Origin: a virus
Virus record (IMG/VR): IMGVR_UViG_3300045988_168250
Location: 1 to 30,707 of that record
DNA length: 30,707 nucleotides
Strand: one strand, 5' to 3'
Under the pieces are notes generated by a model that ran no database searches, was not told where the DNA came from, and was given only the letters and a program-made list of their open reading frames with translations. Made by a program: the position numbers and the translations under genes. Shown here piece after piece: positions 1 to 21,508 of the stretch; the first letter of the stretch is position 1, and the number at the start of each line of letters is the position of its first letter.

Positions 1-2102
1 AGGAAAGACACAATCTGCGCGGCAATCTCCACAATGGTCGTGACCATCGGCACCAACGCGCCGACCACAGTAGACACCATGCCGATGAAAGCTTCACCAA
101 TCTGGACGAGCACGGGGATGACCGCGGCGACAATCGGCTGGACCATCGTCACGAGGCCCTGGAAAATCTGGGCCAGCGAATTGCGGAAAGGCTCACTAGA
201 TGCGAGCGCGGTCACAAACGCGGCCACGAGCAGACCGATACCGGCGACCACCGCGAGCACCGGGGCCGATAGGCCCGCGAGGACGCCAGCGACAGCGCCG
301 ATGACCGGGATAATCGCGCCCACCACGGAGGCAATTGTGCCGATGATTGACACGACGGTGCCGATGACCGGGGCGAGCTGTGCCATTGCGCCGACCACCG
401 CGATGATAGTCGCCGTCAGCTGGGGGTTATTGCGCATGAATTCGGCAATTTGCTTCACGACGTCCGCGATGACGGGGAGGATGACCTTCAGCGCCTCGGA
501 CAGTCCCTTGGCGAGCTCATCGACCACCGGGGCGAGCGATTGCTTAAAATCTGCGAAAGCGGGGGACAGGCCCTGCGCGATTTGGGTGACGAGCGGCGCA
601 ATTGCCTTCACAATGTCGCCGACGGCTCCGAGCAGTGCGCCGACCGAGGGGGCGACCGCCGCGAACGCGGGCGCGAGGGAGATAGCCGCCTGGACAATGC
701 CGTCGAGCAGCTTGCCTACGCCGTCCGCGATAGCGGGGTTGCGCAGGGCGTTAGCCAGACCATCCATGAGGATGGAGATAGCCGTACCGGCCTTCTCCAT
801 CGACCGTGCGATGACCGGGGCGAGCGCCTCGAACGTCTTAGTGAGGGCGCCCACACCAGGCTCGAGAGCCTTGATTGCGTTAAATGCGCCCGTGAATACG
901 GTGGTGAGTGCCCCCTGGAACGCGGGGCCATTCACGATGCCGTTTAGTGCGCCGAGCGCGGTCGCCAGGCCGGCGAGACCACCACCACCGGCGGCCTCCG
1001 CCGCCTTCGCGACACCGTTGATGATGCCGGCCACAGACCCGAGAGCAGAGGCGAAGAGCTTGGCGTTTGTGATGCCCCTCTCAATGAGCTCATAGATTTT
1101 TCCGGAGGCCTCAGCCTGTTCCACCCAGTCACGGAAAGACGTCGCAATCTGCGCGAAGGCCGCGGCCATGCGCGGCAGATAGGTGCCGCCGACAGCGCCG
1201 ATACGGACGATAGCCTCAGCGAGTGGGGCCGCCGCCGTGGACGCAATTTGAAAAGATTCACGGAGCGGCTCGAAGAGCTTTGCCATGCCGCCGACCGCGA
1301 TCATGCCATTTGAAATGCCCTGGAAAAATTCGCCCCAAAATTTACCGGCGATAGGGCCAAAAGCCACATATTGCTTGAGGAACGGGTCGAACGCATTTTC
1401 TACGAACGCGGCGAGGCCGCCGCGCGCTTCATCCCAGAAAGCGCGGCCAAATGCCAAGCGCACATCACGGATGGTGTCCATGATTTTGCCCTCGCCGCCG
1501 TAGAATTTGCCGAGCTCCAGGTGGATATTCTGGAGGCCGTCAGCAGACGCGGCCAGGCCCACGACGAAACCGGACAGGATGCCGGGCAGGGCGAGGCCCG
1601 CGCCCGCGACCTGAGTTAGCGAGACTGCGAGCATCGCGGCATTGCCTGCCGTGGCAGACATCACAGCGCCCATAGCGGCGACACGAGTAGCCGCGAGAGA
1701 CGCCGACACCGCAATCTTATCGAAATTGCCGGCCAGATTCTTGGCGTGCTCGACCGCACCGGCGGCAATATTGCCGCCCGAGAGAGAGGCCAGACCCGCA
1801 CGCGCCGCATCGAGGCCCTTGAGGAGGACGCGGACCTCGGCGGTACGCGGGCGAGTCAGCACGCCCAGTGCCGCCGAGGCCGCGCGGGTTTTAGCGTCCA
1901 CCGTCACATGGGTTTTCAGGTCGCGGCCAATCGTCGCGAGACGCGAGCGCGTCGCCGCGAGCGATGCCTGGTCCACCTGCGCGTGGACCGCTGCCTTTAC
2001 GTCCAGGCCCTTCTCAATCGAGGCGAGCTTGGAGCGCAGCTCGGACTTGAACCGCGACGTGTCGGGGTAGACACGAATCGACAGCTTGCCGATATTCGCC
2101 AT
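1..2102 (-). CDS. Tape measure protein, N-terminal part. The gene runs off the window start and continues at 30707-29752 because the contig is circular, giving about 1005 aa in total. ATG at 2102-2100, RBS GAGAGGAAC upstream.
   Basis: Minus frame (codon top position = 2 mod 3) is open from 2102 to position 1 and in phase with ORF 29752..30699. Translation is Ala/Gly/Ile/Val-rich with repeated hydrophobic segments, typical of tape measure proteins. It lies between the tail chaperones and Dit. The plus ORF 34..1095 is its antisense shadow. Confidence 0.85.
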   Translation of the reverse strand, partial: MANIGKLSIRVYPDTSRFKSELRSKLASIEKGLDVKAAVHAQVDQASLAATRSRLATIGRDLKTHVTVDAKTRAASAALGVLTRPRTAEVRVLLKGLDAARAGLASLSGGNIAAGAVEHAKNLAGNFDKIAVSASLAATRVAAMGAVMSATAGNAAMLAVSLTQVAGAGLALPGILSGFVVGLAASADGLQNIHLELGKFYGGEGKIMDTIRDVRLAFGRAFWDEARGGLAAFVENAFDPFLKQYVAFGPIAGKFWGEFFQGISNGMIAVGGMAKLFEPLRESFQIASTAAAPLAEAIVRIGAVGGTYLPRMAAAFAQIATSFRDWVEQAEASGKIYELIERGITNAKLFASALGSVAGIINGVAKAAEAAGGGGLAGLATALGALNGIVNGPAFQGALTTVFTGAFNAIKALEPGVGALTKTFEALAPVIARSMEKAGTAISILMDGLANALRNPAIADGVGKLLDGIVQAAISLAPAFAAVAPSVGALLGAVGDIVKAIAPLVTQIAQGLSPAFADFKQSLAPVVDELAKGLSEALKVILPVIADVVKQIAEFMRNNPQLTATIIAVVGAMAQLAPVIGTVVSIIGTIASVVGAIIPVIGAVAGVLAGLSAPVLAVVAGIGLLVAAFVTALASSEPFRNSLAQIFQGLVTMVQPIVAAVIPVLVQIGEAFIGMVSTVVGALVPMVTTIVEIAAQIVSF

Positions 2103-5125: not shown

Positions 5126-6055
5126 CTACTTTACCTTGTCCTCGAGCGCGAAGAACGCGTTAGTGTCCGCAATTGCCCAGCCGAAGGACGCCTCACACAG
5201 CAGGGCCTCCTGGTTGGTCTGGAAAAGCGAGGTAGTGGTAGCGCCGTCAGTGATGGACGCCTCACTCGAGTAGCGGAAAGTAATTTCATTCGCAAAGCCG
5301 TAGACCAGCTGAGACCAGTCACCACCAATCGCGCGGACCTTAGTGTCCGCGTTGGTGCCTACCTGGCCGGAGACCACGTCGCCGTATGCGGTGGGCAGAC
5401 CGAAGACCTTGCCCATGTCGTCGGTCAGGTCAAGGCTGGACTGGTAAATCGGGCGGCCGTTAGTGTCGGTCGCGCCCATGAGCTCAAGACGCAGGGAATC
5501 ATCCGCGGCCAAGCCGTTCACGCGGTAGCCCAGGCGCGCATCCTGGACGGCCTTAATACCGGCGATGATATCGCCGGAAATGCCGCCCTTAGCCTGCGCG
5601 GTGGTGCCCAGCTCGACGCGCTTAGTGGTCTGGTTCACAAACTCAACGCCGGGGATAGCCTGGCCGTTGGTGGACTTGCCGTGGAGCACTGCGAGGTCGA
5701 AAGCGCGGGTAATTGCGCCGGCGAGCTGCTGCTGAATGATGCCCTCCAGGCCGAGCTTGTCGGCCTTGGCCAGCTCTTCGGACCAGGTGATGATTGCCGC
5801 GACCTTGATGGGGCGCAGAATCTTCGAGGACAGGCCGAATGAGGTGACGGGCTTCATGCCAGCTTCGCCCACGACGCCAGCCTCCGGGCGGGAGGTCTGG
5901 ACAGCGACGGACGAGCCGGTGAGCGGGAGTGCCAGCTGGTCACCGGCGAGCTTCTTCACGACCGAATCCTGCACGGCCTTGGTAATGACCTTGCTAGAGA
6001 ATTCGGGCGGGAAAATGTTAGTGTTCTTGAGCGAATCAAGGGTCAGAGAAGCCAT
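5126..6055 (-). CDS. Major capsid protein (HK97 fold), 309 aa.
   Basis: ORF 5126..6055. Very strong RBS AAGGAAGGAG. Composition is typical of HK97-like MCPs (Gly/Ala/Thr-rich with a conserved central segment). Flanked by scaffold and head-tail genes. Confidence 0.8.
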   Translation of the reverse strand: MASLTLDSLKNTNIFPPEFSSKVITKAVQDSVVKKLAGDQLALPLTGSSVAVQTSRPEAGVVGEAGMKPVTSFGLSSKILRPIKVAAIITWSEELAKADKLGLEGIIQQQLAGAITRAFDLAVLHGKSTNGQAIPGVEFVNQTTKRVELGTTAQAKGGISGDIIAGIKAVQDARLGYRVNGLAADDSLRLELMGATDTNGRPIYQSSLDLTDDMGKVFGLPTAYGDVVSGQVGTNADTKVRAIGGDWSQLVYGFANEITFRYSSEASITDGATTTSLFQTNQEALLCEASFGWAIADTNAFFALEDKVK

Positions 6056-8709: not shown

Positions 8710-10157
8710 TTCTGCTCCTTTTTCTTTGCGGTCTTCTCTGTCAGACCATAGTACGCCAAAGATGCGGCCACGAGCGGGCTAATATCTGCGCCGGTGTCGG
8801 CACGCGCCCAGTGCCACAGGTCACTCATGCCCTTTGACCGGCGGCACGCCTGCACCGCCTCATCCAGGATAGGGTCGCCCAGGTGACGTACCTTCCCAGA
8901 GGCGATAGCGTCATAAAACGCACCACACGCACGGTCATACTCGCGGCCCGTGAGCCCCCACATCTGCCTTTGCAGAGCCGGGGACCCGCCGACGACACGC
9001 CCAGCCTGGCCAGCCAGCGTGTAGACCATCGCCGCCGGTGACCACGCCTTTTTTAGATCATCCATGCGGCCCGGCACCCACCCGGTACCGCCCTTATGGT
9101 CGATAATCTCGATGTGCACGGTGCCGTCATCACGCCAGGACGCGGCAGCCACCGACGCGATGTCAGACAGCGGGGTGACGTCCACGCCGAACGCAACATC
9201 CAAGCCAGCCTCGGAGTCCTCGTCGCGGCACTGCTCCCAGAAATCGGCGGGGATAGCAGACTCGCCGCCGACTTTCGACCAGATACCCAGGCGCTCGCGA
9301 TTGAATTCCTCCGCGCCCATAGTGCGCCGCTCATCCGCAACCCACTCGGGAGAAATTCGGAGGCCCAGGGCGGGATTTGCCATAGCCCACATTGCAGGGT
9401 CCGCCGGGTCGGCCCCATCAGGCGCAGACCACTCATAAAAAGCCAAATCGCCCGGGTCTCCACTCATAGCGCGGTCACGCACACGGGCCAGAACGTCGCT
9501 ATCGGGAAATCCAGCAGATGATGTATACCACACTTGCGGGTTGCCCTTCATGGTCTTCGCGGACAGCGCCGGGCGAGCCGCCGCCTCCACCTCAACAGGC
9601 AGGTTATACGCCTCATCAAATGCCAGCAGGTCGAACGTGTAGCCGCGAATCGAATCCTTCGAGCGCGCCTTAAACAACATGCGCGTTTTAGAGCGGCCAG
9701 ACGCTTTATCTGCCGCGACCGTGAAACTCATCTCTGAATTTCCGGTCTTGATTCCGGACATTTTGCCGCGCGGGTCGCCACGGTACCCCTCCATCATCTC
9801 GACCAGATAATCACAGCCGCGAATCAGAGACTCCATGCGCCGTTGATGCTCCGCCGCCGTACCGAAAAGGTGTGCAGTGTGAACAATGTTCTCGCTGAAA
9901 AGAAACAGCCCCGCGAGCTCGCGCGCCTCCAGCACCGAGCCCTTGCCATTCTGACGCGGGACGATAAGGCCAACATTTTTAGCGGCCCATTTCCCATCAT
10001 CATTGGTCGCGCACGCGCCACGCAGTACGTGCTCCTGCCACGGGTCCAGCATCAGACCAGCCACAGCGGCCAGGTCCACAGCATCATCACCCCGAGTAGT
10101 CACGTGCAGGGGAGTCACGTCAATGCGCGGGAGCTGAGAACCAACAACCGCGCCCAC
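8694..10157 (-). CDS. Terminase large subunit, 487 aa.
   Basis: Walker A-like VPRQNGKGS, Walker B-like LLAFDEA, and a nuclease-domain acidic residue pattern. Canonical position. Confidence 0.85.
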   Translation of the reverse strand: MGAVVGSQLPRIDVTPLHVTTRGDDAVDLAAVAGLMLDPWQEHVLRGACATNDDGKWAAKNVGLIVPRQNGKGSVLEARELAGLFLFSENIVHTAHLFGTAAEHQRRMESLIRGCDYLVEMMEGYRGDPRGKMSGIKTGNSEMSFTVAADKASGRSKTRMLFKARSKDSIRGYTFDLLAFDEAYNLPVEVEAAARPALSAKTMKGNPQVWYTSSAGFPDSDVLARVRDRAMSGDPGDLAFYEWSAPDGADPADPAMWAMANPALGLRISPEWVADERRTMGAEEFNRERLGIWSKVGGESAIPADFWEQCRDEDSEAGLDVAFGVDVTPLSDIASVAAASWRDDGTVHIEIIDHKGGTGWVPGRMDDLKKAWSPAAMVYTLAGQAGRVVGGSPALQRQMWGLTGREYDRACGAFYDAIASGKVRHLGDPILDEAVQACRRSKGMSDLWHWARADTGADISPLVAASLAYYGLTEKTAKKKEQKWLVL

Positions 10158-10669
10158 TATGCGCCACCAGCCGCGGCACGAGCCTCACGGGCCGCCCGCA
10201 CACGCGCCAACTCATCCACCAAAGACGGGCGCGAATTCGCAGGCTGGCCATCCGCCAGCTTCGCCTTCTCCGTCACCACATTCACCGCGGCAGAAATGAG
10301 ACCGGGCACGTCACGAGCAACCGCAACCTGCAACGAGGCGCGGGCGCGCAGCAGAAGCTCGTCGTAAATCTCGCTAGGTTCCGACAGCGCCGGAACCTCA
10401 ACCTCAATCGACTGGCCATAGGCCACAGTCTGACGGACACGCACCGTCTCACCGCCGGTATGTTTAACCGGCTCGACGGTTAAACGCGCCTCCTGCTCCT
10501 TCTTCACATTCCGACGAGTCTTCTTCTCGTCCTCCGCGCGCTTACGCTCACGATACACCGCCGCGTTCTTCCGCGACGCCTCGCGGCACGCAGGGCACGG
10601 CTCCTCACCAGCACGCTTGTGACGCATGAAAGCGGCGTAGGTGCCGTGCGGCTTCAGGTTGCGAGCCAT
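10157..10669 (-). CDS. Putative terminase small subunit, about 170 aa. ATG 10669, RBS GGAGGTG.
   Basis: Located immediately 5' of the large terminase. Basic N-terminus with the motif HGTYAAF..H...G...CPACREA, which recurs in actinophage small terminase and DNA-binding proteins. Assignment rests on position and motif only. Confidence 0.45.
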   Translation of the reverse strand: MARNLKPHGTYAAFMRHKRAGEEPCPACREASRKNAAVYRERKRAEDEKKTRRNVKKEQEARLTVEPVKHTGGETVRVRQTVAYGQSIEVEVPALSEPSEIYDELLLRARASLQVAVARDVPGLISAAVNVVTEKAKLADGQPANSRPSLVDELARVRAAREARAAAGGA

Positions 10670-10750
10670 TGCTGGCACCTCCAAACGTACAATTTCGGGC
10701 TGGGAGCGCCCGGGGGGAGAAACGACTATGACCGTAGGGGCTCAAATGGG

Positions 10751-10774
10751 GTGTAGGGGGGGTATGCCCCCCCC
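10751..10774 (-). terminator. GC hairpin (G7-tatg-C8 with gtgta/tacac outer arms) just downstream of the HNH gene and upstream of the small terminase gene.
   Basis: Inverted repeat visible at 10756-10762 / 10767-10774. Confidence 0.4.
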
Positions 10775-10788
10775 TCGCGTTACACAGT

Positions 10789-11079: not shown

Positions 11080-11136
11080 GGTGCAAGTGTAGCCCCCCGC
11101 GCCTGTTGTGGTGCGGGGGCTATGTTTGGGGGGGGG

Positions 11137-11409: not shown

Positions 11410-12097
11410 GGGTGGGGGCCTCCTCGATGTGCTCTAGGATGAAGCCGCCGTGCGGGGCTTGCTTGGTTGGCTTCAGTGCGCGGATGATGCGCCAGCCGCC
11501 GCCGAGTACGTGGCCTTCCAGGGCCTCGATGCAGATTGGGGATTGCTCGGAGGCGACGGTGACGAGCGTGGGCTCTGCGTCGCTGGGCTTGCCGGGGATT
11601 TTGAAGTCTATGTGTGAGAGGCATTTGCCGAGGTGTGAGAGGCGCTCGTGCTCGCTATCGTACCGGCTGGCGATGCGGACGACGGCGAATTTTTGGGTTT
11701 CCGTTCCTAGGTGGACGTCCAGCTCTAGGATGGCCGTGGTCGCGGCTTCGCTGAGGTACCCGATGGCGATGTTCTCTAGCGTGGGGCCCAAGCCGTTGTC
11801 GTGGAGGAAATATTCGATGTCTTCAATATCACATTCGGTCGCGTTGCTGTATAGGCGCAGGGGCACGACCGCCTTAAGCGGATCGCCGTTCACGGGGGCA
11901 GCGTTGAGAATCTGGCACAGGCGCGCCATAGTCGCTCCGCTTGCTCGGGCTATGAATTTCAGGTCACCCGACGGGTTCGTCTCAAGTGTGACGTCGAGGT
12001 TTGCGAGCGCGGGGTGTCGCTTGATGGCGGCTTCGGGGTCGAAGATTTCCCCATCGGGGTTCTTGAACATGGTCTTTTGGCGGTTGGTGGTGCTCAT
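11399..12097 (-). CDS. Hypothetical protein, about 232 aa. ATG at 12097 overlaps the upstream stop as ATGA.
   Basis: Long ORF 11399..12145 trimmed to the internal Met that overlaps the stop of 12094..12318. Confidence 0.5.
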   Translation of the reverse strand: MSTTNRQKTMFKNPDGEIFDPEAAIKRHPALANLDVTLETNPSGDLKFIARASGATMARLCQILNAAPVNGDPLKAVVPLRLYSNATECDIEDIEYFLHDNGLGPTLENIAIGYLSEAATTAILELDVHLGTETQKFAVVRIASRYDSEHERLSHLGKCLSHIDFKIPGKPSDAEPTLVTVASEQSPICIEALEGHVLGGGWRIIRALKPTKQAPHGGFILEHIEEAPTHER

Positions 12098-12318
12098 TTG
12101 GGGGCCTTTCGGTTGTAGGGGGCTCGGTGGGTCTTTTGGAGCCATGCGTCGTAGCGGCGCATTTCGGTCTCGGTGTAGAGGCGCACGGTCTGTGTTGGGG
12201 TTTGGGCGTATTCGATTTCGGGTGTGAGGTGGCCGGCGGCTCGGTCTAGGGCGACGAGGTATCGGTGGCGCCCGATGCGGGCGGCAACCTTGGCCTCGGT
12301 TAGCAGGTTTGTGGTCAT
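12094..12318 (-). CDS. Small HTH DNA-binding protein, excisionase/AlpA-like, 74 aa.
   Basis: The N-terminal LTEAKVAARIGRHRYLVALDRAAG region resembles HTH_17 excisionase-family helices. Confidence 0.4.
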   Translation of the reverse strand: MTTNLLTEAKVAARIGRHRYLVALDRAAGHLTPEIEYAQTPTQTVRLYTETEMRRYDAWLQKTHRAPYNRKAPK

Positions 12319-12326
12319 CGTGTCTT

Positions 12327-12704
12327 TCAGTGGTGGTTATTTTCTGGGTTTAGGCGGGCGCGGCGGGCTTGGAGCCACGCGTCGAGAGCGCGGCGGTTGT
12401 GTTCGGTTGTGGCGCGTATCTCTTCCTCGGTTTTTCTGGGTTTGGGGCGGGTGCGGGGCGGGACGTTCGCGATTTTCCCGGCCTTTTTGGCTCGGGAGTA
12501 TGCGCGTTTGCGGCATGTGTCGCAGTCGGGGTTTGTGTCGTCGAGGTCCCATCCGCATTTTACGCAGCTGGTTTTATCGGGGATTGTGTCTTTTGCGTCG
12601 GGGTGCCCTTGGGCGCGCCATCTGGAGTGCCGGGCGGAACAGCGGTGGCACCCGGGGGTGTATTCCTCGCGGGGGCCACCGCATCCCGGGCATGTGGTAG
12701 TCAT
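12327..12704 (-). CDS. Cys-rich zinc-ribbon protein with four CxxC pairs, 125 aa.
   Basis: CPGC...CHRC and CVKC...CDTC motifs. Basic C-terminus. Confidence 0.5.
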   Translation of the reverse strand: MTTTCPGCGGPREEYTPGCHRCSARHSRWRAQGHPDAKDTIPDKTSCVKCGWDLDDTNPDCDTCRKRAYSRAKKAGKIANVPPRTRPKPRKTEEEIRATTEHNRRALDAWLQARRARLNPENNHH

Positions 12705-12838: not shown

Positions 12839-13399
12839 CTAGAGATTCTTAATAGCGTCGTCGATGCGTTGCCGGGTGAGCCTAAACGTGGCGTCCTGAG
12901 AGTTCGCCTCCATCTGCCAGGCGATTTCTCGCTCGCGCTCATTGTCCAGCCATTCCGTAAGGCGGTTAGCTATATTCTCCGGGCGGTTGCACTCGATAAT
13001 CACCTTGTCGATGGTGTTGCTGTATACCGGTACCCAGCACCCATAATAAATGGGGGTGCCCTTCCTATCCCAGCCAAAAAGGTTATTATGACCGCCTACG
13101 AAGCGGCGCGCGTGCTCTTTGATGTCGTAATCCTTGCTGAGCACGAAGCTACGTGAGTTAGCGCCGTACATGTTGCTTGTCGGAAAGTTTGCGCGTTCGG
13201 GGTGGTAAATCTCCACGAAGTTGTGACCTTTACCGCAATCGTAGCTATGGGTCGGGAGGTTGCCGTGCTTAAACCAGTCTGCCAGCCACTTGTCATAGAG
13301 CGTGACCTGAAAGTCGATAAGGTTTTCATTTTTCGGGGTTACGGGCGGTTCTGCGGGTGTGGTGGTTTTTCCTTGGAAAAGGTCGAGTATGCCGGGCAT
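12839..13399 (-). CDS. Hypothetical protein, 186 aa, with lower GC than its surroundings (moron-like).
   Basis: ORF 12839..13399. The region is visibly more AT-rich than the rest of the genome. No recognisable motif. Confidence 0.5.
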   Translation of the reverse strand: MPGILDLFQGKTTTPAEPPVTPKNENLIDFQVTLYDKWLADWFKHGNLPTHSYDCGKGHNFVEIYHPERANFPTSNMYGANSRSFVLSKDYDIKEHARRFVGGHNNLFGWDRKGTPIYYGCWVPVYSNTIDKVIIECNRPENIANRLTEWLDNEREREIAWQMEANSQDATFRLTRQRIDDAIKNL

Positions 13400-13459: not shown

Positions 13460-13633
13460 GTGGGTTGGGTTAGCAGATGGTCTCGTCGCCGCCGACCATC
13501 ACGACGGTATCGGGGTCGATACCGCAGGCGGCCATCTTCTTGCACCTGGTCTCGAAGAATTCTTCTATGTCCGCTTCGGTTACCGGGCGGTGGTAGCCCT
13601 TGGTGGCGATTTCCTTGTTGAATTCCTTGATAG
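13460..13633 (-). CDS. Small Cys-containing protein, 57 aa (MTRSIKEFNKEIATKGYHRPVTEADIEEFFETRCKKMAACGIDPDTVVMVGGDETIC). It falls below the ORF-track length cutoff.
   Basis: Hand translation. Perfect RBS AAGGAGAAAC 6 nt upstream of the ATG at 13633. Stop TAA at 13462-13460. Lies immediately downstream of promoter P1. Confidence 0.55.
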
Positions 13634-13683
13634 AGCGGGTCATTTGGGTTTCTCCTTGGTTTGGTGTAGGGGGTTTGTTCCCC

Positions 13684-13713
13684 CTACACCTATATTATGG
13701 CACATGTGCCAAC
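13684..13713 (-). promoter_or_regulatory. Promoter P1 on the minus strand: TTGATA-N18-CATAAT, with the perfect palindrome TGGCACATGTGCCA (13688-13701) in the spacer and overlapping the -10. A perfect 11-bp hairpin (13653-13680) lies at the predicted 5' end of the transcript.
   Basis: Read directly. The same architecture is seen at 17656-17685 and 20143-20171. Confidence 0.55.
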
Positions 13714-13739
13714 CTGTTATCAAGGCGGCTGGCTGTGAA

Positions 13740-14234
13740 TTACGCCACAATAAGCTCCAAATCCTGAATATCGAAGACCCCGCCGGCGGACATGACCAGC
13801 TCGGCATAGGCGGCGACCGTCTCGACTGTCAGCGGCATCGGGTGGACGCGCAGCAGCTCGCCGTACTCCGGGAACCACCGGCGGGTGTCAAAATCACCGG
13901 CCAGGAATTCGTCTACCGCGACGCCGCGGATGCCCTTCCAGTCTCGTGCGTCGATGCTGGTGATGCGGTCGACTACCAGGTGGTATGAGCTGATGGTTCC
14001 GCCGTGTGGGTGCGGGCAGTCGATAAACCAGCGGTGAGCGCGGGTGTAGGCTCGGGTGGTGTTCGCGTCGATGCGGGCCGTGGTCTCTTCGCTGAAGGCC
14101 GGCAGGCTGAGAAGCTTCGCGGCGGCCTCGAGTACGGCGACGTGCTCGCGCAGGGTGCGGGCCTCGCTCTTGATGGCCTTGTCGTTGATGACGCCCTGGA
14201 TGGTGAAGTGGGTGAGGGGTGTGATGGTGATCAT
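13740..14234 (-). CDS. Hypothetical protein, 164 aa. RBS AAAGGAGAAA.
   Basis: ORF with a strong SD. Confidence 0.5.
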   Translation of the reverse strand: MITITPLTHFTIQGVINDKAIKSEARTLREHVAVLEAAAKLLSLPAFSEETTARIDANTTRAYTRAHRWFIDCPHPHGGTISSYHLVVDRITSIDARDWKGIRGVAVDEFLAGDFDTRRWFPEYGELLRVHPMPLTVETVAAYAELVMSAGGVFDIQDLELIVA

Positions 14235-14330: not shown

Positions 14331-14609
14331 TTAGTGCTTGCGGGCGTATGCGTCGCCGTAATTCTCGTCTACCCAGCGGTAGAACGCTTCGCGAGCGCTC
14401 ATCTTGCCGTAGCTTTCGCCTTCGCCCCTTGCGCTCAGCTTTGCGTAGGTGTCCCAGTCGCCGGTGTTGTAGACGGTGACGGTGCTGTTCTTGCCGCGGG
14501 GCGGGCGCTCGAGGTATGCGTAGGTGTCGTCGAGGCGGTCGATGCTGTAGACGGCGGGGCAAGCGATGTAGAGCTTGAATCCCTTGTAGGTGTAGGTGGG
14601 GCGTGCCAT
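14331..14609 (-). CDS. Hypothetical protein, 92 aa. ATG 14609, RBS AAGGAGAAC.
   Basis: Track ORF 14331..14672 trimmed to the Met with a strong SD. Confidence 0.5.
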   Translation of the reverse strand: MARPTYTYKGFKLYIACPAVYSIDRLDDTYAYLERPPRGKNSTVTVYNTGDWDTYAKLSARGEGESYGKMSAREAFYRWVDENYGDAYARKH

Positions 14610-14643: not shown

Positions 14644-14672
14644 ACTATACACGCCGTTGTCAGGTGTGGCAA
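14644..14672 (-). promoter_or_regulatory. Near-consensus sigma70-type promoter P3 on the minus strand: TTGCCA-N17-TATAGT, upstream of the 92-aa gene.
   Basis: Read directly. -35 at 14672-14667, -10 at 14649-14644. Confidence 0.5.
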
Positions 14673-14700
14673 CTTATTTTTGTGTGAAGTGCATCACATT

Positions 14701-15108: not shown

Positions 15109-15124
15109 GGACACCTCTCGGAGG

Positions 15125-15162
15125 CTAAAAGAATACCCCCACCCATACCAGGGTGGGGGTAT
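15125..15162 (-). terminator. Intrinsic terminator: a perfect 12-bp stem (atacccccaccc/gggtgggggtat) followed by UCUUUU on the minus transcript. It lies between the SSB and rusA genes.
   Basis: Inverted repeat 15133-15144 / 15151-15162 with a T-rich tract downstream on the minus strand. Confidence 0.6.
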
Positions 15163-15307
15163 CCATAACTATGTAAGGAGAAAGCATGTCCGCGCTCGCG
15201 CGGGCCTACTCTGCGAGACCAGTATAGCACAAGTCCCCCAGGCCGTGATTAGCCGAGGGGACTTGCGTATACCATTCCGCACACTCTACAGGAGTACGTC
15301 TAGCATA

Positions 15308-17087: not shown

Positions 17088-17183
17088 CTGATTTTCCTTT
17101 CTCGCTTCTCGGTACCTCCAGCCTACCGGTTTTGTCCCGCTCGGCGCAAGTTTGCGGCATGTGAGTTAAGTCTCTTAGTTCAG

Positions 17184-17285
17184 TAAATAGTTAGTTAAAT
17201 AGTTCGGGGGTAATGGCTGGTACCCCCCCATACCAGCCATTGCCTCCCCCCATACCAGCCATTGCCTCCCCCCATACCAGCCATT
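17184..17285. repeat. Iteron-like array. It holds two copies of taaatagtt (17184-17204) and three direct 22-bp copies of cccccc-ataccagccatt-gcct (17223-17285). One inverted copy, aatggctggta (17212-17222), forms a palindrome with the first direct copy.
   Basis: Read directly. Candidate origin of replication or regulator-binding array in the divergent intergenic region. Confidence 0.6.
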
Positions 17286-17655
17286 GGTAAGGGTGGTTTT
17301 TGGTAGGGGGGGGCATTTTGGGCAAAAAAATACCCCGCATAGGCCAAACCATGAAAGCCAATGCGGGGTATTTCAACCAAGAAACCCAAAAGGTCACTAC
17401 TAGTTTACCACAGCATAAGGGCCCCGGAAAACCATGCCGGGGCCCTTATCGACTTCATCACACCTCACAAAAGGAGATGAAGTCATTATACCGCATCTTC
17501 GCAATGCCGAGTGAGTGACATACCAAGTATAGCACGAGAGCCCCCAAATAATTGGGGGCTCTCATGATGACTATTCCGTGTCCACAGCAGCAGTGACTCA
17601 ACTCCCTACCAGTGTACCACACTAGCCGGTGTGTCCAGTATCACGCCGCCGCGCC

Positions 17656-17685
17656 TTGATAATCATCTGGCAGGCGTGCCACAAT
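17656..17685 (+). promoter_or_regulatory. Promoter P2 on the plus strand: TTGATA-N18-CACAAT, with the palindrome TGGCAGGCGTGCCA (17668-17681) overlapping the -10. It drives the plus-strand operon.
   Basis: Read directly. Same architecture as P1 and P6. Confidence 0.55.
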
Positions 17686-20142: not shown

Positions 20143-20171
20143 TTGCGACAGGCTGGCAGGCCTGCCATACT
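20143..20171 (+). promoter_or_regulatory. Promoter P6 on the plus strand: TTGCGA-N17-CATACT, with the palindrome TGGCAGGCCTGCCA (20154-20167) overlapping the -10. Upstream of the acidic protein gene.
   Basis: Read directly. Third copy of the TGGCA-N4-TGCCA operator. Confidence 0.5.
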
Positions 20172-21452: not shown

Positions 21453-21464
21453 AAGACACGAAAA

Positions 21465-21491
21465 GGCCCCCACCCTGTATGGGTGGGGGCC
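21465..21491. terminator. Bidirectional terminator at the convergence point of the plus block and the minus lysis genes. A perfect 11-bp stem (ggcccccaccc/gggtgggggcc) is flanked by AAAA on one side.
   Basis: Read directly. Confidence 0.65.
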
Positions 21492-21508
21492 TCCCCTATA
21501 CCTGCCGC

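Follow-up and report, generated by a model that had tools for sequence, protein, structure and literature searches.

The inverted repeat TGGCA-N4-TGCCA, hereafter dyad A, occurs exactly three times in the window, which is the whole 30,707-bp stretch of viral DNA analysed here. Each copy lies between the -35 and the TG-extended -10 of a host-type promoter (P1, P2 and P3), and each promoter faces an open reading frame (ORF) preceded by a Shine-Dalgarno sequence (ATG at 13643, 17714 and 20221). With moderate confidence, we favour the view that dyad A is the site of one two-fold-symmetric regulator, probably phage-encoded, which would repress the three operons together. An operator common to several promoters of one phage would be an ordinary phage control element, here in a phage group which is itself undescribed.

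Dyad A, its promoters and its conservation

Three exact copies of dyad A compare with a chance level of 0.02 in dinucleotide-preserving shuffles, none of the 100 of which reached three. When up to two mismatches are allowed, 14 sites are found against 17.7 expected, nothing above chance. At the first site, the minus strand from 13723 to 13692 reads TTGATA-acaggt-TGGCACATGTGCCA-TAATAT, exactly as the sequence-only reading had written it; the range that it attached to this element, 13684-13713, is displaced by about 10 bp, omits the -35 and takes in part of a downstream hairpin. Its distance of 18 bp between the -35 and CATAAT is also the one returned by a promoter scan, which adds a TG ahead of CATAAT. 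The same arrangement had been said to recur at the two other sites, and this is so at site 2, on the plus strand, whose -35 is again TTGATA, with a linker of 6 bp and an 18-bp spacing to CACAAT. It is only partly so at site 3, where TTGCGA is followed by a 5-bp linker and CATACT stands at 17 bp. The perfect 14-bp palindrome is found at site 1 only, sites 2 and 3 and the relatives being symmetric in their 5-bp arms alone.

All three promoters have the hexamers, the 16-18-bp spacing and the orientation toward a gene that define the sigma-70/SigA type. The threshold of the scan was 9/12 against the consensus hexamers, and P3 (8/12) falls under it. Their -10 hexamers all begin with C, contrary to those of two further promoters without dyad A (P4, TATAGT; P5, TAGGCT), and this non-consensus base at -12 is present because the arm of dyad A requires a C there. 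The coordinates of these features, together with those of the second motif and the candidate regulators discussed below, are collected in the table.

Table. Promoters, repeated motifs and candidate regulator genes in the window
Feature	Position	Strand	Sequence and remarks
Dyad A copy 1	13698-13711	-	TGGCA-CATG-TGCCA; in P1; about -24 to -11
Dyad A copy 2	17668-17681	+	TGGCA-GGCG-TGCCA; in P2
Dyad A copy 3	20154-20167	+	TGGCA-GGCC-TGCCA; in P3
Site 1, pieces	13723-13718; 13717-13712; 13711-13698; 13697-13692	-	-35 TTGATA; linker; palindrome; TAATAT
P1 core	13694-13723	-	TTGATA (13723-13718), 18-bp spacer, TG (13702-13701), -10 CATAAT (13699-13694); promoter scan 10/12 + TG
P2 core	17656-17685	+	TTGATA, 18-bp spacer, TG extension, CACAAT; promoter scan 9/12
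P3 core	20143-20171	+	TTGCGA (20143-20148), 17-bp spacer, TG extension, CATACT; 8/12, read from sequence
P4, without dyad A	14644-14698	-	box B TGTGATGCACTTCACA, 10 nt, TTGCCA, 17-bp spacer, TATAGT; conserved in relatives
P5, candidate, without dyad A	17120-17175	-	half box B AGAGACTTAACTCACA, 10 nt, TTGCGC, 18-bp spacer, TAGGCT
P1 leader hairpin	13663-13690	-	GGTGTAGGGGG-AACAAA-CCCCCTACACC; begins 3 nt past the P1 -10
Box B at P1	13734-13749	-	TGTGGCGTAATTCACA; overlaps stop codon of gene 13740-14234; conserved in relatives
Box B at P2	17630-17645	+	TGTGTCCAGTATCACG; 10 nt from -35
Box B at P3	20117-20132	+	TGTGATGAGGTTCACA; perfect consensus; 10 nt from -35
Box B, all starts (16 bp each)	840, 2422, 3742, 6829, 7412, 13734, 14683, 15827, 17630, 20117, 21866, 22283, 23541, 28467, 29675, 30433, 30544
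g74	12094-12318	-	74-aa candidate regulator; P1 operon; predicted MerR/BldC/excisionase-type winged helix-turn-helix
g125	12327-12704	-	125 aa, second candidate; two CxxC-N9-10-CxxC zinc-ribbon modules, a basic stretch after each

The comparison set consists of the window and nine relatives, i.e., 10 genomes or contigs with 24 promoter instances. The relatives are an IMG/VR contig of 30,741 bp (about 89% DNA identity), L178, L179, L181 and L182, L183, L184 and L185, and finally L272 and L273, which form the most divergent branch. L183, L184 and L185 were collected via homologues of a 133-aa protein (g133), and the g133 protein of L185 is shared by L186 and L187. A search for dyad A in related phages, proposed along with the motif itself, showed that each relative spanning the full region carries exactly three copies, in the same three promoters and nowhere else.

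Across the 24 instances, the arms deviate from the majority base at only 2 of 240 positions, against 65 of 240 for the 4-bp centre taken together with the -35 linker (Fisher p ~3e-19, the orthologous sites being non-independent samples), and the centre takes 14 different forms. At the 10 orthologous P1 sites, the arms are invariant, as are the -35 and the -10, while the centre occurs in six forms. One of the seven P2 orthologues has a CGCCA arm and one of the seven P3 orthologues a TGGCG arm. These two variants affect positions 5 and 10, the innermost of the arms and related by symmetry, which reduces the core of dyad A to TGGC-N6-GCCA. Constrained arms around a drifting centre fit contact by a dyad-symmetric protein. 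Dyad A has two of the features looked for in an operator: inverted-repeat arms that are conserved while centre and flanks drift, and, in all three promoters, an overlap with core promoter elements (the TG and bases 1 and 2 of the -10). The signal is tempered by the fact that intergenic regions are generally well conserved among the relatives, and conservation of the right-arm part (the TG and the -11 A) would be expected from promoter function alone.

Outside this clade, a 66-kb contig with matching geometry (L044) was set aside as a chance match, as it has no proteins in common with the window and no other sites. Scans of IMG/VR for the -35 plus the dyad, or for the dyad plus TAATAT, returned two true relatives; their other hits were coding sequences or due to chance.

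Box B, the promoters without dyad A, and the operons

The second motif, box B, is a CRP-box-like repeat (TGTGN-N6-TCACN) present in 17 copies in the window against 0.8 expected, an enrichment of about 20-fold. The CRP/GlxR box is TGTGA-N6-TCACA, and box B matches it: with at most one mismatch, there are 12 sites (three perfect and nine with a single mismatch) against 0.55 expected. Box B stands exactly 10 nt 5′ of the -35 at P1 to P4, and the half box of P5 keeps this register; most copies are intragenic, without a nearby promoter. The relatives are all enriched likewise, for example L181, with 12 copies in 13 kb against 0.4 expected. In 1.55 Mb of Rothia/Micrococcaceae DNA, on the contrary, box B is rarer than expected (11 copies against about 45), and no CRP-family gene was found in the phage.

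P4 and P5 are candidate promoter-like sites, recognised from their sequence, which would head replication genes. P4 precedes genes 14331-14609 and 13740-14234, and P5, almost invariant in five genomes, the replication initiator gene (ATG 17087). Since both are built on the same plan but without dyad A, the latter appears as a regulatory add-on to three of the five promoters.

Downstream of P1, the leader begins with a hairpin having an 11-bp stem (-22.1 kcal/mol, or -17.1 kcal/mol if the transcript begins at 13687), followed on the minus strand by the ribosome-binding site AAGGAG (13657-13652) and the ATG at 13643. The hairpin could serve in mRNA stabilisation or in termination of upstream read-through. 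In L184 (about 5829-5856), the stem of this 28-bp element is kept and its 6-nt loop is inverted (TTTGTT vs. AACAAA in the window), which suggests selection on the stem-loop structure and not on the loop sequence. A mosaic junction is located directly past P1, where the first genes of the operon (57 aa, 13470-13643; 186 aa, 12839-13399) are swapped for unrelated ORFs in relatives (L178, 1790-3203). In L078/L178, an unrelated ORF takes the place of the gene after P1, and promoter, dyad A, hairpin and ribosome-binding site are all retained.

The P1 operon probably contains small genes, an HNH gene and the cos region, and continues into the terminase and structural genes. No other sigma-70-like promoter was found on the coding strand from P1 to the end of the structural genes, so P1 is probably the gateway to the late genes too. 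P2 is followed by a 59-aa membrane ORF (ATG 17714), the g133 ORF, a YqaJ exonuclease and RecT. In one relative (L177, IMGVR_UViG_3300011982_000063), the start codon of the membrane ORF is ATA instead of ATG, which may leave the first P2-operon gene unexpressed in that relative. The P3 operon is made up of three genes with no assigned function, namely an acidic 96-aa ORF (ATG 20221) and ORFs of 200 and 101 aa, and it ends at a bidirectional terminator (21460-21496).

Candidate regulators and mode of action

The protein that would bind dyad A is most likely phage-encoded, as far as can be judged from the genomes. The sequence-only reading had also called for a search of host DNA, where dyad A was expected about three times in 1.55 Mb of Rothia/Micrococcaceae sequence and was not found once; its absence there and the scarcity of box B argue, weakly, for phage-encoded binders of both motifs. 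Pieces of unrelated phages that have related endolysins show no enrichment of either motif, and nor do host segments.

On the basis of its predicted structure, the 74-aa protein g74 is the best candidate binder. Its model (pLDDT 89) has a beta-alpha-alpha-beta-beta-alpha fold, and its best Foldseek matches are the DNA-binding domains of the MerR family (NmlR, SoxR, MtaN, BmrR and CueR) together with BldC (structures 5d90, 2zhh, 1r8d, 1exi and 6ama), with probabilities near 0.99 but weak E-values (≥0.04) and TM-scores of 0.5-0.66. The 74 residues hold the winged-helix part only, without the long MerR dimerisation helix or an effector domain. An exhaustive profile search restricted the g74 family to this clade, with a single remote 76-aa match, whose own matches to helix-turn-helix models stay below threshold. 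Immediately upstream lies the gene of the second candidate, g125. Both are present in every relative where their region was fetched, and downstream of P1 the window and the mosaic relative L178 have in common only g125, g74, HNH, TerS and TerL. Pfam, PHROG and NCBIfam models gave no match for g74 or g125 and nothing significant for the conserved unknowns as a whole, and sequence searches of the PDB with g164, g125, g159 and the g74 profile were likewise negative. The g133 protein was rejected as a regulator: the one hint, a CII-like match, has an E-value of 0.3, its AF2 model a pLDDT of 64, and Foldseek returned noise. The TerS-like protein (10157-10684), which has weak PHROG matches to “WhiB-like regulators,” shares with g125 a zinc-ribbon-plus-basic-helix motif (H/C...CxxC, then R/K-rich) that may be a recurrent DNA-binding module of actinophages.

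In the mechanism that we propose, P1, P2 and P3 would be read by the host RNA polymerase (SigA/sigma-70-type), and the regulator would sit on dyad A as a dimer or as two monomers head to head. If transcription starts about 7 nt past the -10, the dyad would cover the TG, the base at -12 and the -11 A that flips out in opening; a protein bound there would keep the DNA duplex, and RNA polymerase would be either excluded or trapped. The three operons (the small and late genes behind P1, RecET recombination behind P2, and the P3 genes) would be repressed together, with the replication operons of P5 and P4 outside the control of dyad A. If g74 is the binder, P1 would be autoregulated. The earlier claim that the palindrome has the geometry of repression holds as to geometry, since dyad A lies over the extended -10 and reaches two bases into the -10 itself, as would suit repression; repression itself is proposed from the DNA sequence. 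From the position over -24 to -11 and the forced C at -12, we infer that repression by occlusion is most likely.

Two points count against a repressor. As far as promoters can be recognised, the late genes are entered from P1 only, and a repressor made from P1 would throttle their expression. In addition, searches with Pfam, PHROG and NCBIfam models revealed neither an integrase nor a cI/Cro pair nor any other lysogeny module, so that a classical phage repressor operator is not the sole reading of dyad A. Lambda cI/Cro at OR/OL and the 12-bp palindromic operators of gp33 in mycobacteriophage BPs are dyads placed in several promoters and bound by one protein. Dyad A is like these lambdoid and actinophage operators in being a short dyad over core elements of several promoters, with one protein proposed for several operons. 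It differs in that each promoter has a single copy instead of a cooperative array, with a 5-4-5 layout and a free centre, and in that the divergent repressor/cro pair, tandem operators, integrase and recognisable repressor gene of a lambdoid immunity region were not found here.

Could a transcription factor of the host, Rothia, bind dyad A instead, and tie the three operons to a physiological signal of the cell? No phage protein can be assigned to the dyad. Its 5-4-5 geometry is that of an FNR-type box (TTGAT-N4-ATCAA), and each of these promoters also carries a CRP-consensus-like box in fixed register. The arms are unrelated in sequence to those of the FNR box, and box B is centred near -54, not at the classical CRP positions of -41.5 or -61.5. 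We know of no actinobacterial regulator motif that matches the arms, and the motif strings gave no paper in the literature searched. Dyad A is absent both from the Rothia/Micrococcaceae DNA mentioned above, a sample of one chromosomal region, and from fragments of unrelated phages with, probably, the same host. A host factor seems to us rather improbable.

It is somewhat less probable still that dyad A is the site of a MerR-type activator, with g74 reshaping the DNA in the spacer and turning on P1 to P3 as a middle/late class after the replication operons. The predicted fold of g74 best matches MerR-family DNA-binding domains, dyad A lies within the -35/-10 spacer as in merT, soxS, copA and bmr, the 18 bp of P1 and P2 exceed the optimum by one base, and an activated promoter would suit the apparent sole entry to the late genes. 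However, MerR-type promoters have spacers of 19-20 bp with the dyad in the spacer centre. Here, the spacers are 18, 18 and 17 bp, and the dyad, centred at about -17.5, is displaced some 4 bp downstream from the middle of the spacer and reaches into the -10. Taking TAATAT as the -10 of P1 would give a 20-bp spacer, but this alternative breaks down at P2, where the corresponding bases are CAATGG. All three promoters already have good -35 hexamers and a TG-extended -10, and g74, having neither the coiled-coil dimerisation helix nor an effector site, is not a full MerR regulator. It is as small as BldC of Streptomyces, which binds direct repeats head to tail and not a 14-bp inverted repeat.

Least of all would dyad A be a part of the promoter itself, read either by an alternative sigma factor or by the polymerase holoenzyme, for instance as an unusual extended -10 combined with an upstream spacer element, which we hold to be very improbable. 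The right arm does overlap the TG and the -11 A, both read by RNA polymerase, but the left arm (about -24 to -20) corresponds to no sigma-70 element that is known, and the right arm is matched by it exactly in reverse complement. The C at -12 and at -13 is non-consensus and yet invariant, P4 and P5 share the plan (box B, 10 nt, -35, 17-18-bp spacer, -10) without the dyad, and the phage showed no gene for a sigma factor. A sigma-54 promoter is rejected, the GG and GC being 9 bp apart and not 12, and Actinobacteria to our knowledge lacking sigma-54; so is a LexA site, the actinobacterial SOS box being different in sequence.

Returning to repression, the fuller picture is that of an integrase-less, lytic-looking actinophage that would depend on the host RNA polymerase and two clade-specific dyads, with box B marking all the promoters and about a dozen intragenic places, and with a BldC-sized MerR-fold protein repressing from the spacer and -10; that all these parts hold together is doubtful. 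Should it be true, such a use of the MerR fold and such a circuit layout, in which the gateway to the late genes would be autoregulated, would be of a kind not described for phages, and g74 as the binder would widen the known roles of minimal MerR-fold proteins. A comparable arrangement of repeats is known from Cluster O mycobacteriophages, whose 17-bp dyads TGTTCGG-N3-CCGAACA are present in more than 30 copies (PMC4351075). Like dyad A, these are actinophage-specific inverted repeats with invariant arms and a variable centre, accompanied by SigA-like promoters; unlike it, with its three copies all in promoter cores, they occupy intergenic and 5′-proximal coding positions (PMC4351075). They are nearer to box B with its 17 copies.

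The phage group, its probable host and other features of the genome

The window (30.7 kb, 63% GC) is the genome of a small phage of the siphovirus type. Its minus strand encodes a WhiB-like/TerS-like protein, TerL, portal, capsid and tail proteins, an Amidase_2+SH3_5 endolysin, a replication initiator (HTH_36), SSB and RusA, and its plus strand the YqaJ exonuclease and RecT. The tape-measure gene (3-2102, minus strand) runs off the left end of the window; as this gene presumably resumes at the right end, the window probably represents the whole genome of the phage, about 30.7 kb long and circularly permuted. From its gene content, the phage looks lytic, or at most episomal.

Megablast of the region gave no match among cultured phages. 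For TerL, identity to any record does not exceed 57%, and the endolysin is less than 60% identical to any record in the cultured-phage comparison. The latter is 68% identical to the endolysin of a prophage (L189) adjoining a CorC/CNNM gene that is itself 96-99% identical to those of Rothia mucilaginosa and other Rothia. A related endolysin in a Rothia-flanked prophage suggests that the clade probably infects Rothia; a genome scan with the endolysin alignment gave no match to a host. Rothia phages are essentially undescribed, with a single passing mention in the literature searched. In public assemblies, the clade is a common one, represented by dozens of contigs some 28-32 kb long. For such a group, there is now a regulatory map of five host-type promoters, three of them with a common operator, a second motif in fixed register and two small candidate regulators, and the operator-promoter cassettes could serve as compact regulated promoters in high-GC Gram-positive hosts.

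Just upstream of the replication-initiator gene are three 19-bp repeats CAATGGCTGGTATGGGGGG (minus strand, 17224-17286) and an inverted copy (about 17205-17222). They are iteron-like, adjoin an AT-rich stretch and differ in number among relatives; from its sequence, this region is probably the origin of replication. The 630-bp intergenic region also contains an intrinsic terminator on the minus strand, ATACCCCGC...GCGGGGTAT followed by seven T (17324-17371). Upstream of it, as far as about 17577, are extended -10-like sequences (GTGCTATACT at 17535-17526, GGTATAAT at 17492-17485 and TGGTAAACT at 17410-17402) and two conserved hairpins, with no Rfam match. Judging by these signals, one or more small RNAs may be produced from it. 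Rfam and tRNA scans gave no match.

G/C-rich hairpins, G8-CATA-C7 and GCCCCCGC...GCGGGGGC (10685-10788 and 11080-11136), lie on either side of the HNH gene, a short way upstream of the TerS-like gene, and the G/C-rich gap between the two genes is probably, from its layout, the cos region of an HNH-dependent packaging system. Lastly, several relatives have, between their SSB and RusA genes, one for an N6/N4 DNA methyltransferase (L184, 7098-7355; L185, 4025-4738; L273, 6640-7188), where the window has only a 193-bp gap (15115-15307) holding another GTGCTATACT (15230-15221, minus strand).
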